DNA from: a phage
Assembly: GCA_014435945.1 (NCBI GenBank)
Contig: GCA_014435945.1_4088.1
Length of the DNA: 64,000 bases
Strand: one strand, 5' to 3'
The notes under the pieces were generated by a model, which worked only from the letters and a program-made list of their open reading frames with translations, made no database searches and had not been told where the DNA came from. The translations under genes and the position numbers were made by a program. Positions 10,831-60,521 of this stretch are shown here, piece after piece (position 1 is the first letter of the stretch; every line of letters starts with the position of its first letter).

Positions 10831-10866
10831 TAGGGTTGACTTCGGTCAACCTTTTCTTTATACTAT
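10831..10866 (+). promoter_or_regulatory. PeSL-like terminator-promoter cassette
   Basis: gggttgacttcggtcaaccttttctttatact. Confidence 0.6.
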
Positions 10867-12410: not shown

Positions 12411-12447
12411 AAAAGGTTGACTTCGGTCAACCTTTTTTTGTAAATAT
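12411..12447 (+). promoter_or_regulatory. PeSL-like terminator-promoter cassette (weaker -10)
   Basis: aggttgacttcggtcaacctttttttgtaaat. Confidence 0.5.
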
Positions 12448-14876: not shown

Positions 14877-15134
14877 ATGTTTGCATTGCGTAATAAAAAT
14901 ACAAAAGAGATTCTATGTATCTCAACAGTATGGGATTGTGCAGGAAGTGAAATGATTCTCGAAGAAGGTTCAGGTGATTGTGTTTATGTTGTTCAGGATC
15001 GTCGCGAACTGGAATCATTACTTGACGAATTTAATGCTGGTGGAAATCCTAAAAGTACTCAATTCCCTGAGATCAGGAATCCAGCACCACCAGGCTCTTA
15101 TGAAATTCTACAACTGTGGGAGATGGATAAGTAA
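14877..15134 (+). CDS. hypothetical protein
   Basis: ORF track. Confidence 0.45.
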   Translation: MFALRNKNTKEILCISTVWDCAGSEMILEEGSGDCVYVVQDRRELESLLDEFNAGGNPKSTQFPEIRNPAPPGSYEILQLWEMDK

Positions 15135-15514
15135 TGCGTCAAATGCACAAAGTAACCGAGCTAAACAAGCGTCTGATTAAACAATCAATGTTTGAGGATA
15201 AAGAGTCTTACTATAACTTCAAACGTGCTGTAGAGGCTGCTATCCACATTCAGAAGCTTAAAGAACGTGGTTGTATTATTCTCGAAAATGGTTCTGACGT
15301 TGTGACGAATGACTTCAGTGTAGCGTTTGATGTTTCACCTGATGGTTCGCTATCAATGCCACGCTTAGGGACTGGTAACATGACTGTGTGGGTAGGTTTC
15401 ACTATGGGAAATGTACCAGGTACTGTGTATGTAGATGATGCTGAGTTGAAAGAAAGCTTCAAAAACTTATCGTATCTTGAACCACAACACGCACATGAAA
15501 TGAATTTATTTTGA
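15134..15514 (+). CDS. hypothetical protein
   Basis: ORF track; overlapping start/stop. Confidence 0.5.
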   Translation: MRQMHKVTELNKRLIKQSMFEDKESYYNFKRAVEAAIHIQKLKERGCIILENGSDVVTNDFSVAFDVSPDGSLSMPRLGTGNMTVWVGFTMGNVPGTVYVDDAELKESFKNLSYLEPQHAHEMNLF

Positions 15515-16995: not shown

Positions 16996-17265
16996 ATGTA
17001 CGCATTGTATAATAAAGAAAAGAAACGATTTGCTAAGGTTGAAATTTCGATTGATACATTTGACATGTTGGAGTACTGTATTGTAACGGATTTATATGCT
17101 AACTTGTATTACGTTCTTGATGACGTATCAGTACTGCAACGATTGCTTGAGAATTCCAAAAGCCAATGCCAGGGCATCTATGATGGTTCATCTTATGAAA
17201 CACCTGAGTGTTCCTACGGCTATCTGGACGGGTATGAGATTGTGAAGTTGGGGATTGTTGAATAA
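16996..17265 (+). CDS. hypothetical protein
   Basis: Internal ATG with GGAGA SD. Confidence 0.45.
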   Translation: MYALYNKEKKRFAKVEISIDTFDMLEYCIVTDLYANLYYVLDDVSVLQRLLENSKSQCQGIYDGSSYETPECSYGYLDGYEIVKLGIVE

Positions 17266-17356
17266 ATGGATTAAACAATGAAGAAGTGTATCATTCTTTG
17301 TTCTAATCACCATCGCATGGTACATTCTGGTAGACTATGTTTGATTGAAAGAAAAA

Positions 17357-17393
17357 AAGGGTTGACTTCAGTCGGCCCTTTTTGCTATAATCA
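17357..17393 (+). promoter_or_regulatory. PeSL-like terminator-promoter cassette
   Basis: gggttgacttcagtcggccctttttgctataat. Confidence 0.7.
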
Positions 17394-17419
17394 TTTCATC
17401 GAAACGAGAGGATGAATAC

Positions 17420-17935
17420 ATGACACGCATTAACTTAGTACACGTTAAAGAACTTGCTGACCAACATCTGATGGCTGAATATCGTGAACTCCCACGTGTG
17501 TTTGGTGCTGTACAAAAACATGTTCAAGCACGTAAGCGAGTCCGTGATTTCAAAATTAACAGTACTTACCTGTTAGGTTCAGGTCATGTAACATTCTTCT
17601 ACAACAAGTTATTGTACTTACAGAAGCGTCATATTGATATTGTTAACGAATGTTTGCGTCGTGGTATGAAGATTCAAAACACTGAAGTAAACGACATTAG
17701 CGGATTCCCTGCTGAGTTTTGTAATGACTACGTACCATCGGAGTCAGAGATTAAAATGTCTCGTGAGCGTTTGATTGAGAAGCTACAGATGAAGCCTACG
17801 TGGTATAAATTTACTGACGTTGAACGCCCACAGTATGTTAAAGATATGCAGGACGTAAGTAGTAATATAGAATCTAGTACTGATATGTTCGACGAAATTG
17901 AAGAACAAATCAAAGATGAAATGAATAATTATTAA
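17420..17935 (+). CDS. denV: endonuclease V / pyrimidine-dimer DNA glycosylase (DenV family), with about 35-aa acidic C-terminal extension
   Basis: Near-identical to T4 DenV over the N-terminal 60 aa ([42 protein letters not shown]), with weaker similarity through ..PTWYK; catalytic Thr2 and Glu23 conserved. Confidence 0.9.
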
Positions 17936-17940
17936 AGGAA

Positions 17941-17976
17941 AGGGTTGACTTCGGTCAGCCCTTTTTGCTATAATTA
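17941..17976 (+). promoter_or_regulatory. PeSL-like terminator-promoter cassette
   Basis: agggttgacttcggtcagccctttttgctataat. Confidence 0.7.
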
Positions 17977-18000
17977 TTTTATCGAAACGAGAGGTAATAC

Positions 18001-18213
18001 ATGAAACTATCTTTTATACGTTTAGCAGAATTCTTCGGTACTGATATTATTACTTTACAACAAATTGCAGACAATACTTCATTAAGTACACAAGAAGTAC
18101 TTGACTTAGATGTAATTCAGTGCGATAATACTTCCATTGATTTCAAAGAAGGTCTTGTCGAAAAAGATAAGATTCAAGCTAAGATTAATGGTGCTGGACG
18201 GGTTCAGTACTGA
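18001..18213 (+). CDS. hypothetical protein
   Basis: ORF track; downstream of PeSL-like promoter. Confidence 0.45.
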   Translation: MKLSFIRLAEFFGTDIITLQQIADNTSLSTQEVLDLDVIQCDNTSIDFKEGLVEKDKIQAKINGAGRVQY

Positions 18214-18229
18214 AAAGGAGTATTGAGTA

Positions 18230-19378
18230 ATGTTTGAAAAGTACTATTTAAATGAAGATGGTGAGAAAGTTTATATTATTGAAGAATTATGTACTAAATT
18301 TGAGTACATGAAAATAGAAAATGTTCCTGTAAAAAATAAAAAAACTATCGTTAGAATTGATGAAATTAAACTAAAAGCCATTGAAAAAGAAGATACTATT
18401 TTTGGCTTACAGATATCAAACAGTAATCAATTTTTTGGACTAGAAAAGAATAAAGTTCTGTTTAGATGTGGAACATGCAGCACTTTATGTACAAGTTCAC
18501 TGAAAAGTTATCTTATCTCTGGTGGATGTCAGATATGTGGTAAGAAGAAAAGAAAAGAGTACCAAAACACTATCAAAATATCTGAATCTGATGCATTAAA
18601 AGAAATACAAAAAGAGTGTAAACGCGAATCTATTACATTTATCAAATTTGAAGGTGAATTTACTACAAAATTCAAATCTAAATTTTGGTACAAATGTAAA
18701 AACAACCATACTCGTTTATGTGAGAACATTTATGATTTTCTTAATGGTCATAATTGTGTTGAATGTCGTGATTACAGCTCGGCAAAAAAGATTCGTTTGA
18801 ATATTCTAGTAGTCAAATATGAAATAGATAAAAGAAACGCAGTTTGTAATAATACCTTTATTGGATTTGTGGGAGGTGTTTATGAAACATCAAAAACAAA
18901 ATTACATTTACAGTGTAATGATTGTAATAACCCATTTTATCCATCATATCATAACTATATATCATCTGAGTCTTCATGTCCTACCTGTTCATCAGGTGAG
19001 AGTAAGAATTTAGTTGATATTGATGGTATGTTAGAAGATGATACCATAAAAGAGAAACGCTTCATTGATTGTAAGTTCAAAAAGCCATTACCTTTTGATC
19101 GATTTATTGAAAGTAAACGAATCCTTCTGGAATATGATGGAGTACAACATTTTCAATCAATCAAATTATGGGGCGGCAAAAGTGCTTTTGAACAAAGAAA
19201 GATAAAAGACGCAATAAAAACTGAGTACGCCATCAACAACGGTTACAACTTCATTAGGATTGCATACTATGAAGACCACGTTGCAGTACTGAAATCTTTT
19301 CTAAAACTTATCGAAGATAATCCAGAAAAGCAAATCGTACAGATTTATGGTGAAGTACAAATCTTAGACAAGAAATAA
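18230..19378 (+). CDS. Cys-rich multi-Zn-ribbon protein with C-terminal Vsr/DUF559-like (PD-(D/E)xK) endonuclease motif; candidate homing-type endonuclease
   Basis: Several CxxC pairs; C-terminal EYDGxQH..D..K..A...GY.FIRI pattern. Confidence 0.5.
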   Translation: MFEKYYLNEDGEKVYIIEELCTKFEYMKIENVPVKNKKTIVRIDEIKLKAIEKEDTIFGLQISNSNQFFGLEKNKVLFRCGTCSTLCTSSLKSYLISGGCQICGKKKRKEYQNTIKISESDALKEIQKECKRESITFIKFEGEFTTKFKSKFWYKCKNNHTRLCENIYDFLNGHNCVECRDYSSAKKIRLNILVVKYEIDKRNAVCNNTFIGFVGGVYETSKTKLHLQCNDCNNPFYPSYHNYISSESSCPTCSSGESKNLVDIDGMLEDDTIKEKRFIDCKFKKPLPFDRFIESKRILLEYDGVQHFQSIKLWGGKSAFEQRKIKDAIKTEYAINNGYNFIRIAYYEDHVAVLKSFLKLIEDNPEKQIVQIYGEVQILDKK

Positions 19379-19387
19379 CAATACAAA

Positions 19388-19423
19388 AGGGTTGACTTCG
19401 GTCAGCCCTTTTTGCTATAATTA
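19388..19423 (+). promoter_or_regulatory. PeSL-like terminator-promoter cassette
   Basis: gggttgacttcggtcagccctttttgctataat. Confidence 0.7.
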
Positions 19424-19449
19424 TTTCATCAACTGATGAGGATAACGAA

Positions 19450-20220
19450 ATGACCAGAGAAGCACGTAGCATTCAAATCCAGAAAAACTTCAACTCCATG
19501 ATGGTTGCTCTTGAGTGTTTGCTCGATGATAGCAGTACTGTAAAAAGTATGGTTGTCAGTGGTGCACCTGGTGTTGGTAAGACTTACACCCTGTCACAAC
19601 GCCTCCAGAAAGCTCATGACGCAGCAGAATGGAACGTAGCTACTATCAGTGGTAAGATGACTACTCTTGCTCTGTATGAAGTTCTGTACAAGAATCGTCA
19701 CAGCACTAACGTATTAGTACTGGATGATATGGACAGCATCTTTGATTCAGAAGACGGTATGAACCTGCTCAAAGCAGTACTGGACAGCGGTAAACGTACT
19801 GTGTCTTACATGACTAGCTCTAAGTACTTAACTACCAACGGTATCCCTAACAGCTTTGATTTTAACGGTCGTATCGTATTCATTACTAACAAAGATTTAG
19901 CACTGAATGCTAAAGCTAAAACCAAAATGTCTGCTCACTATGCTGCTCTTATGTCTCGCTCTGTGTATGTTGACTTACAGATCCAGACTAAAAGCGATAT
20001 CATGATTCACATTGAAAACGTAATGAACAAGACCAACATCCTGTCAACTAAAGGTGTTAATAGTAATGGTAGCAAAGCAATCCTGAATTGGATGCTGAAA
20101 CATGAAGATGCACTTCGTGCCCCTTCACTGCGTATGCCTCTGTTGATTTCAGCAGTATACAACAACAACCCGTATGATTGGGAAGAGCAGTGCGAAAATT
20201 TGTTCCTTGAGAAAATTTAA
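19450..20220 (+). CDS. P-loop NTPase (Walker A GAPGVGKT, Walker B VLVLDD)
   Basis: Motifs read directly; codon usage looks less AT-biased than neighbours. Confidence 0.65.
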   Translation: MTREARSIQIQKNFNSMMVALECLLDDSSTVKSMVVSGAPGVGKTYTLSQRLQKAHDAAEWNVATISGKMTTLALYEVLYKNRHSTNVLVLDDMDSIFDSEDGMNLLKAVLDSGKRTVSYMTSSKYLTTNGIPNSFDFNGRIVFITNKDLALNAKAKTKMSAHYAALMSRSVYVDLQIQTKSDIMIHIENVMNKTNILSTKGVNSNGSKAILNWMLKHEDALRAPSLRMPLLISAVYNNNPYDWEEQCENLFLEKI

Positions 20221-60179: not shown

Positions 60180-60521
60180 ATGACTATCTCAATTGCTCAA
60201 TCTAACTTTGAAAATGAAATCATCGCCCAGGCACTGCGTTTAAATGATGGTCGGGCCGAAATTAATTACGGTTTCAATTCAGGCGGTTGTGAAAAATATC
60301 AGTACTTTGTAACGGCTGATGGCGGTGTCCTGGGGATCAATACAGTTATTGTAAACATTCAGAAAATTAATTTCAATGATCCAGAAGATAGCCAGTTTTA
60401 CATCACGGGCGTGAACGTGAACTATGAGGATGATTATCTAACTGATGATCACACTGGCGAGAAGTTAGAAAGTGCATACGGTGAAGATGATTATCAGTCC
60501 GGTCCAGAAGATTTCGAATAA
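60180..60521 (+). CDS. hypothetical acidic protein
   Basis: ORF track. Confidence 0.5.
   Translation: MTISIAQSNFENEIIAQALRLNDGRAEINYGFNSGGCEKYQYFVTADGGVLGINTVIVNIQKINFNDPEDSQFYITGVNVNYEDDYLTDDHTGEKLESAYGEDDYQSGPEDFE

Follow-up and report, generated by a model that had tools for sequence, protein, structure and literature searches.

A jumbo coliphage denV gene with an optional acidic tail between PeSL-type cassettes

T4 endonuclease V, the DenV protein, is the textbook model of electrostatic one-dimensional DNA scanning, and it is used in the detection of cyclobutane pyrimidine dimers and in topical repair preparations. In the T4 enzyme, the alpha-amino group of Thr2 acts as the nucleophile after removal of the initiator methionine, and Glu23 is catalytic. 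R3, R22, R26, R117 and K121 are basic DNA-binding residues, W128 and Y129 make up a C-terminal aromatic segment, and the C-terminus adjoins the active site and the DNA-binding face. The enzyme is said to find its dimers by salt-sensitive electrostatic scanning (work of Lloyd and co-workers; structures of Morikawa and Vassylyev). Here we describe a denV gene at positions 17420-17935 of a stretch of phage DNA of 64,000 nucleotides (hereafter the window; contig GCA_014435945.1_4088.1), the product of which ends in an acidic tail. The gene lies between two cassettes that resemble the promoter(early) stem-loops (PeSLs) of RB49/phi1, PST/T4 and nt-1/KVP40; like these, they combine an AT-rich stretch, a GC stem-loop, a sigma-70-like promoter, a Shine-Dalgarno (SD) sequence and a start codon (PMC2839356, PMC4122927).

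The source of the window is an Asteriusvirus jumbo coliphage of the 121Q/PBECO4 type. Its nucleotide identity is ~97% with Escherichia phage vB_Ec-M-J and 94-98% with 121Q, TH47, Ecwhy_1, PBECO4, phAPEC6 and others; the relatives compared are Asteriusvirus jumbo coliphages with genomes of 350-380 kb. No tRNA genes were found within the window. The open reading frame (ORF) at 17420-17935 is on the + strand, runs from an ATG to a TAA codon, encodes 171 amino acids (aa) and is preceded by the SD sequence GAGAGG at 17406-17411, 8 nt 5' of the start. Its product matched Pfam Pyr_excise (PF03013) with 55.2 bits (cut-off 23) and phrog_1183, 'endonuclease V N-glycosylase UV repair enzyme', with 198 bits (E 8.7e-59). 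T4 endonuclease V (PDB 2END, 138 aa) was matched with E 7.9e-54, free of gaps across residues 1-131 of both proteins and with ~64% identity. Judged from these matches, 17420-17935 encodes a bona fide DenV, predicted to be a T4-type pyrimidine-dimer DNA glycosylase/apurinic-apyrimidinic (AP) lyase. The gene itself is already known and annotated in relatives: gp217 of 121Q (YP_009101804) is also 171 aa long, and Asteriusvirus records give the gene the same label as phrog_1183. The tail is previously undescribed, and no mention of it was found in the database records or literature searched. In the Rak2-like phage CBB, denV (CBB_519) lies in a predicted early region rich in RpoD-like promoters (PMC5259590).

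The Pfam, PDB and phrog matches place the glycosylase/AP lyase domain in codons 1-134 (17420..17822, +), which we refer to as the catalytic core. The protein starts with MTRINL and retains Thr2 and Glu23. In an alignment of 89 sequences, T2, R3, R22, E23, R26, R117 and Y129 were invariant and K121 was nearly so (at least 90%); W128 is present in the window DenV and replaced by F in part of the clade. The AlphaFold2 (AF2) model of the 171-aa protein had a predicted local distance difference test score (pLDDT) of 92. When this model was compared with T4 endonuclease V (1ENI, 2END) using Foldseek, a target-normalised template modelling (TM) score of 0.93 and a root-mean-square deviation of 1.4 A over 133 columns were obtained. 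The predicted structure of DenV matches the all-alpha three-helix fold of the T4 enzyme.

An earlier note on the window had described a DenV homologue of 171 aa with a D/E-rich C-terminal extension, and the ORF, the tail and the Pfam and 2END matches all agree with this description. The note had set the length of the protein against the 138 aa of the T4 enzyme. The extra acidic tail does exist, but the baseline length in the Rak2-like jumbo-phage clade is 144-147 aa, with proteins ending in ...P-x-Y-Y-x-x-M-[IL] (T4-like DenVs have 135-142 aa), and the real add-on therefore amounts to ~27 aa. Downstream of the core, the variable 3' segment (codons 135-156; 17823..17887, +) contains the end of the clade-typical C-terminal helix (PQYVKDM), followed by a linker rich in Ser, Thr, Asn and Asp. 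The conserved terminal motif, predicted to be an acidic amphipathic helix, takes up codons 157-171 and the stop codon (17888..17935, +). Past residue 144 the tail has 10 acidic residues and 1 basic residue (net -8). The core alone has a net charge of +6 and an isoelectric point (pI) of 9.4, and the whole 171-aa protein a net charge of -2 and a pI of 6.2. This charge reversal by the tail is common to all three lineages that carry it.

The 15 residues of the motif follow the consensus [FY]-[DE]-x-[IV]-E-x-Q-I-K-[DE]-E-M-N-x-x. Its hydrophobic moment exceeded that of 98% of shuffled sequences, and that of the whole tail exceeded 99.9%. Among six long Asteriusvirus alleles compared, residues 159-171 were identical, and residues 157 and 158 vary (F157L in vB_Ec-M-J, D158E in ph0011). 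The motif is conserved at 9 of 13 positions in Xanthomonas phage XbC2 and P0010 and is also present in P0008 (DVERQIKEEMNNY, DIEQQIKDEMNLE); the cores of these two lineages are 66-73% identical. The codons of the motif differ at synonymous positions (ATC/ATA, GAA/GAG, AAT/AAC). The linker, on the other hand, changes in length and sequence among relatives, always by in-frame indels and with mostly non-synonymous substitutions, giving long forms of 158, 167, 171, 176 and 179 aa. P0003/P0004 lack it (158 aa), ph0011 has a linker shortened by 4 aa (167 aa), and P0008 (176 aa) and P0010/XbC2 (179 aa) have longer ones. For the window DenV, AF2 predicted a single continuous helix from 138 to 169 (pLDDT 77-86). 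For the 179-aa form it predicted the core, a linker at 155-162 with pLDDT below 50 and a terminal helix at 165-177 with pLDDT 52-58, a pattern as expected for a tethered element that folds on binding. The tail is an optional accessory module composed of a variable low-complexity linker and a conserved acidic amphipathic helix.

When the tail was used as a query in tblastn, only DenV C-termini were matched, in 19 Asteriusvirus records and in XbC2, with one site per genome. The apparent full-query coverage in the T4-like phages VR5 and TU01 was discarded, as the VR5 gene encodes 138 aa and the alignment had overrun its stop codon. A query with the tail alone against an index of 5.8 billion proteins gave no candidates, an outcome that reflects the word index and does not count as absence. 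Out of ~36 Asteriusvirus records, 19 carry the tail and ~17 have short or otherwise different ends. Short or otherwise different ends were also found in all Klebsiella (Alcyoneusvirus), Erwinia, Cronobacter and Pectobacterium relatives. Besides Asteriusvirus, the tail recurs in two other Rak2-like lineages, each of them mixed with short forms of 144-147 aa. In a neighbour-joining tree of the DenV core, the motif-bearing forms fell into three separate clusters, again mixed with short forms. This scatter would mean that either the tail is ancient and was lost repeatedly, or lineages have exchanged it. Because the motif is kept across different linkers, across three clusters of the core tree and in spite of synonymous codon differences, we conclude from the alignments that the tail is genuine and that selection acts on its protein sequence.

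Beyond this clade, the part of the query past residue 150 was unaligned in all of the best 150 of 1,421 matches (50%-identity representatives), and the motif was found in none of these; nor was the tail found in T4-like DenV forms of 135-142 aa. Among the same 150 representatives, 19 (~13%) are at least 165 aa long, with heterogeneous extensions unrelated to the window tail. On this comparison a C-terminal extension as such is not rare in the DenV family, and the window tail is lineage-specific and conserved. The earlier note had raised the question of whether the extension is common to DenV homologues. It is not general, being absent from the T4-like forms and the 150 representatives, but it is a common allele in its own genus. 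Taken together, the tail makes DenV a conserved but dispensable variant of the classic enzyme.

A search of the 961 ORFs (at least 50 aa) of the complete TH47 genome with a hidden Markov model (HMM) of the motif gave 42 bits for DenV and at most 10 bits for any other ORF. We therefore rejected the idea that several phage proteins share the motif as a docking tag. Similarly, no second peptide or DNA copy of the tail was found in the window or in TH47, which argues against its capture from a small ORF or paralogous DNA. A scan of the window for acidic C-termini returned a single other ORF (60180-60521), which is unrelated. A frameshift or an annotation artefact was rejected as the source of the tail, since 19 Asteriusvirus records and independent metagenomic contigs share its reading frame and motif. 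We also observed that a 126-aa ORF (15134-15514) ends in ...PQHAHEMNLF, faintly like the DenV ends DEMNNY and DEMNLE; this likeness is far below significance and probably due to chance.

The boundary of the tail polymorphism lies inside the ORF, at codon 135 (17823-17825), and not at a cassette. The homology of the window to PBECO4, Turkey3, phAPEC6 and SD-2_S15, which carry short alleles, ends at this position and resumes at 17939, in the next cassette. The DenV of Turkey3 is identical to that of the window through residue 133 and then continues with DLPDYYTEMIK and a stop codon. As homology is lost from codon 135 to 17939, the alternative ends appear to have been swapped as a segment that reaches from inside the ORF to the downstream cassette. 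Swaps of the denV 3' end would thus exchange the stretch from codon ~135 to the next cassette, and the tail module would be old in the Rak2-like clade and repeatedly lost or replaced. Other, unrelated tails were found at the same DenV site in metagenomic relatives (P0012, P0018 and P0024). In the Salmonella phage SD-2_S15 (locus L012, 3001-3729), an annotated 242-aa 'endonuclease' consists of DenV codons 1-136 fused in frame to a downstream gene like gp308 of PBECO4. This fusion drops the last residues of the DenV C-terminal segment, and could stem from a genuine deletion or from an assembly error.

The earlier note had also placed PeSL-like cassettes on both sides of denV, at 17357 and 17941. 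The cores of these cassettes start at 17359 and 17942, so that both positions were right to within 1-2 nt. The window has the 33-nt core GGGTTGACTTCRGTCRGCCCTTTTTGCTATAAT six times, always on the + strand (6459, 10053, 13063, 17359, 17942 and 19389); no copy was found in 100 shuffles. The copies at 17359 and 17942 have no mismatch to the degenerate pattern, and across the cassettes 0-2 mismatches occur over the 33 nt. Complete cassettes are confined to 6.4-19.4 kb of the window, a hyperplastic region whose ORFs are small and variable. All six complete copies of TH47 (complete genome, 352 kb) are located on one strand within 16 kb, and in IMG/VR exact cassette matches were found in only three contigs, of 348-366 kb. 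The same cassette is present 5' of denV in RaK2, in XbC2 and in one divergent metagenomic relative.

The cassettes begin with an A-tract and a GC-rich stem of 8 bp (A-U extended), closed by a UUCG or UUCA loop. A U-run follows, and then, counted from a -35 TTGACT within the stem-loop, come an 18-nt spacer, a TG-extended TATAAT, a short conserved leader, an SD sequence and an ATG. In cassette 1 (17350..17419, +), the A-tract at 17350-17358 is followed by the hairpin at 17359-17378 (GGGTTGAC-TTCA-GTCGGCCC) and a T-run at 17379-17383. The predicted promoter of this cassette (+) has a -35 hexamer TTGACT at 17362-17367, which is part of the hairpin (5' arm and loop), TG at 17383-17384 and a -10 hexamer TATAAT at 17386-17391, ahead of the denV SD sequence GAGAGG at 17406-17411. 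The promoter scan scored 11 of 12 hexamer positions, an 18-nt spacer and the TG. Folding of cassette 1 RNA gave -17.3 kcal/mol on the + strand (z -4.0) versus -10.9 on the - strand. Cassette 2 (17936..18000, +) contains a hairpin at 17942-17961, a T-run at 17962-17966, a -35 at 17945-17950, a -10 at 17969-17974 and an SD sequence at 17989-17994. It is predicted to drive the next gene, which starts at 18001, and its RNA folds with -18.4 kcal/mol (z -5.1). Cassette 3 (19380..19449, +) precedes an AAA ATPase gene (19450-20220). Overall, the cassettes fold with -17 to -18 kcal/mol on the + strand (z -4 to -6) and with about -11 on the - strand. The A/G variation in the 3' arm retains U-A or G.U pairs, workable only in + strand RNA, which fits a terminator. 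Our terminator scan left the cassettes unlisted, as its rule requires a T-run outside the stem; the hairpins were clear on folding. The terminator hairpin and U-run would end the upstream transcript while overlapping the -35 of the next sigma-70 promoter, and denV would be expressed from such a composite as its own early transcription unit.

Apart from the complete cassettes, stem-only copies without the promoter half were seen at 10833, 12414, 59976 and 63634. Apart from its TTCG loop, the copy at 12411-12436 (AAAAGGTTGACTTCGGTCAACCTTTT) forms an inverted repeat, and with the A- and T-runs on its flanks it resembles a bidirectional terminator. Promoters of the form TTGAC[TA]-N16-19-TATAAT were strand-biased, with 18 on the + strand versus 2 on the - strand of the window and 40 versus 1 in TH47. 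No consensus sigma-70 promoter was found at ~20-49 kb of the window, a stretch that includes the RCC1-repeat array described below.

Next we compared the region of 15-21 kb with ten relatives, which gave 60 homology ends in 22 distinct clusters. Three cassettes, which make up 3.4% of this region, contained 26 of the 60 ends and 4 of the 22 clusters (binomial P 0.006). When the window was compared to the whole of TH47, 4 of 32 breakpoints were located within 40 bp of a hairpin, with 0.9 expected. The largest of all clusters, at 17344-17360, 17939-17964 and 19377-19386 (the last of these in 5 relatives), were in cassettes. In 121Q, vB_Ec-M-J, TH47 and Ecwhy_1, homology ends inside the hairpin of cassette 2 (17955-17964), and a truncated cassette is followed by different genes. 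In ph0011, the cassette-denV-cassette block is the sole part homologous to the window, with the AAA ATPase gene directly downstream. The 2.9 kb 5' of its denV cassette (locus L011, 1-2940), which include a putative Dam-like DNA N6-adenine methyltransferase gene, are unmatched in the window and in TH47; on this alignment a different block has taken the place of the upstream DNA, with its boundary exactly at the cassette. The cassettes would serve as regulatory punctuation and as short portable homologies for the exchange of neighbouring ORFs. The position of denV is the same in every relative examined, and insertion, deletion and replacement affect the genes next to it. The view of denV as a shufflable module, put forward in the earlier note, thus holds insofar as breakpoints between relatives concentrate in the cassettes, but denV itself keeps its locus in these relatives and its surroundings change.

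As an overall explanation, we consider it probable that the locus consists of a denV gene with an accessory tethered-helix tail, set between cassettes that act as punctuation. Within this explanation about two thirds of the weight goes to a functional tethered helix, and the remainder is split among the alternatives discussed below. The tail helix would be a tethered binding element that docks on a partner or folds back on the basic DNA-binding face. A folded-back helix would temper the salt-sensitive non-specific scanning of DNA; alternatively, the acidic helix would bind a basic surface of a partner protein. A bolder version, which we hold to be rather unlikely, is that the tail is a built-in governor: the helix would sit on the basic face and be displaced by damaged DNA or a partner, or would recruit DenV to a phage or host complex, and would be held as a long-lived presence/absence polymorphism with a benefit dependent on the host or the UV regime. 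If true, the T4 endonuclease V family would have here its first enzyme that is regulated or coupled to a partner. A PIP-box or beta-clamp motif was rejected, as the spacing of Q, hydrophobic and aromatic residues in the tail misfits Qxx[ILM]xx[FY][FY] and QL[SD]LF. Several points weigh against a functional tail. About half of the close relatives lack it, and T4 endonuclease V works without it. A short allele can share its core up to residue 133 with a long one, as Turkey3 does with the window, and therefore the cores show no co-evolving docking surface. The terminal helix of the 179-aa model has a pLDDT of 52-58, and AF2 gave no confident evidence of docking onto the core. Unrelated tails at the same position (P0012, P0018, P0024 and the SD-2_S15 fusion) fit a site that simply tolerates junk. 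As to the cassettes, promoter and terminator activity are predicted only, the breakpoint ends are not independent across related genomes, and whole-gene indels must end in intergenic DNA whatever the mechanism.

The tail could be without function, a tolerated recombination by-product at the 3' end of denV that persists by descent. Short forms in about half of Asteriusvirus and in all Alcyoneusvirus records, the unrelated extensions and the 242-aa gene fusion at the same point, and the heterogeneous extensions in ~13% of the DenV representative clusters all speak for this. We nevertheless think it improbable, as the same 13-15-residue motif occurs in three lineages with cores 66-73% identical, with a linker varying in frame and synonymous substitutions in the motif. 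Somewhat more improbable still is a coiled coil, by which the tail would dimerise DenV or join it to another helical protein, bringing two catalytic domains into one complex. A heptad-like hydrophobic stripe can be read from the sequence (M143, I150, F157, I164 and Y171, with Y139, V146 and I160), and both the single AF2 helix at 138-169 (pLDDT 77-86) and the high moment of the whole tail would suit it. However, the flanking positions are nearly all acidic (net -8), which is unfavourable to a parallel homodimer, the stripe is interrupted in the 179-aa and 176-aa forms by a proline-containing low-complexity linker predicted to be disordered, and the conserved stretch has only ~15 residues. The constraint might also act on the DNA, with the AT-rich 3' end of denV doubling as an UP element of the downstream promoter. 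GAAATGAATAATTAT is located ~40-60 nt 5' of the downstream transcription start in the window, the -35 TTGACA directly abuts the stop codon in XbC2 (locus L015), and RpoD-like promoters of the CBB type are reported with UP-like elements (PMC5259590). The conserved stretch of ~45 nt is, however, longer than an UP element, its substitutions are synonymous (ATC/ATA, GAA/GAG, AAT/AAC), and at locus L014 the peptide motif is kept even though the spacing to the next -35 differs by ~20 nt, so that we give this alternative very little credence. A further alternative concerns the mosaic neighbourhood and the alternative denV 3' ends, which might come mainly from gene conversion driven by homing endonucleases, with a minor part for cassette recombination. 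An HNH gene lies directly 5' of denV (intact in vB_Ec-M-J, a remnant in the window), a mosaic 382-aa homing-endonuclease-like gene lies 300 nt downstream, where relatives have other HNH or GIY-YIG-type genes, and three breakpoint clusters lie outside the cassettes, at 17265-17293 (the HNH insertion site), 17823-17825 (denV codon 135) and 18224-18285 (the start of the 382-aa gene). Yet the largest clusters are in the cassettes, and several relatives have cassettes truncated inside the hairpin at the junction. We regard such conversion as possible, though doubtful, as the main source and as a credible co-contributor to the mosaicism; the two mechanisms are not mutually exclusive (PMC4122927).

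Between the upstream gene and the denV cassette, the window contains the remnant of a freestanding HNH endonuclease gene, a 45-aa ORF (17278..17415, +) with an in-frame 318-bp deletion between AAGTGTAT repeats. The intact gene encodes 137 aa in vB_Ec-M-J (locus L001, 4379-4792; phrog_2255 HNH, E 9e-32) and is absent in 121Q and PBECO4. The last codons and the stop codon of the intact gene are drawn from the A-tract and stem of the denV cassette (...AAA AAG GGT TGA). Downstream of denV, a 70-aa gene (phrog_34150; 18001..18213, +) is the first of the next cassette-bounded unit and follows a cassette in all Asteriusvirus relatives. The 382-aa homing-endonuclease-like gene (18230..19378, +) matched phrog_559 HNH (E 4.6e-39), phrog_9084 homing endonuclease and Pfam DUF4379 (treble-clef finger), and homology to vB_Ec-M-J resumes at 19195. 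The N-terminal two thirds of its product differ among relatives, in which HNH, 'endonuclease' and 'exonuclease ABC C subunit' genes are found at the same position. The gene at 19450-20220, directly after a cassette in all relatives, encodes a 256-aa AAA+ ATPase (phrog_1250; weak Pfam AAA/STAND matches below gathering), for which the vB_Ec-M-J label 'clamp loader of DNA polymerase' looks over-specific. Farther downstream, at 22763-43931 (-), ~18 tandem paralogous genes encode proteins of 369-401 aa with RCC1 or RCC1-like repeats (PF00415, PF13540, PF25390). This multigene family corresponds to the 'chromosome condensation regulators' of the fEgEco12 paper. Its copy number appears to differ from that in TH47, as homology is patchy at 27-44 kb.

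Neither the tail nor the cassettes alone alter current understanding. The charge-cancelling tail and the natural tail-less alleles that are identical to residue 133 do provide a ready-made pair to ask whether charge or a tethered helix tunes target search or repair coupling. The cassettes extend the PeSL idea from T4-like to unrelated Rak2-like jumbo phages, in a compact form with the -35 inside the terminator hairpin. They support the view that, in large phage genomes, regulatory punctuation that is strong and uniform also provides the joints for recombination.

Compared with known systems, the window DenV is like T4 endonuclease V (2END, 1VAS, PF03013) in Thr2, Glu23, the Arg and Lys DNA-binding residues, the W-Y segment and the fold. 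The T4 protein ends at residue 138, whereas the window protein adds the clade helix to ~144 and the 27-aa acidic tail and is acidic, not basic, overall. The DenV proteins of 121Q and other Asteriusvirus records, whose genes share the locus and whose sequences, with the tail counted in, are 96-99% identical, show no difference of substance. Flexible tails are known from other proteins of DNA metabolism: UNG2 has a disordered N-terminal interaction tail, and T4 gp32 and T7 gp2.5 have acidic C-terminal tails that compete with DNA or recruit partners. Human NEIL1 similarly combines a repair domain with a disordered C-terminal tail that contains a short conserved binding element (PMC11387677). None of these four belongs to PF03013 or has a sequence relationship to the DenV tail.

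For the cassettes, the literature searched contained no description of terminator-promoter composites of this kind in Rak2-like phages. The early promoters of CBB are also of the consensus sigma-70 class (RpoD-like, with an UP-like element) and are located in an early region of small ORFs that includes denV; in the passages of their description retrieved by keyword they appear without the coupled terminator hairpin or gene-shuffling role of the window cassettes (PMC5259590). Like the window cassettes, PeSLs recur through an early hyperplastic region; differences between close relatives by indel or replacement stop within these elements or next to them, with degraded 'half' copies at the junctions. 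PeSLs belong to T4-like Straboviridae, whereas the window cassettes belong to a Rak2-like jumbo phage. Moreover, the PeSL hairpin lies just 5' of the promoter, whereas in the window it overlaps the -35 hexamer in a more compact geometry, and the window cassettes are very uniform and few (six complete copies in 16 kb of the 352-kb TH47 genome). We take the overlapping -35 as a variant, since PeSLs are by definition analogous composites rather than members of one homologous family. In their predicted parts, the window cassettes are PeSL-type composites of a compact variant.

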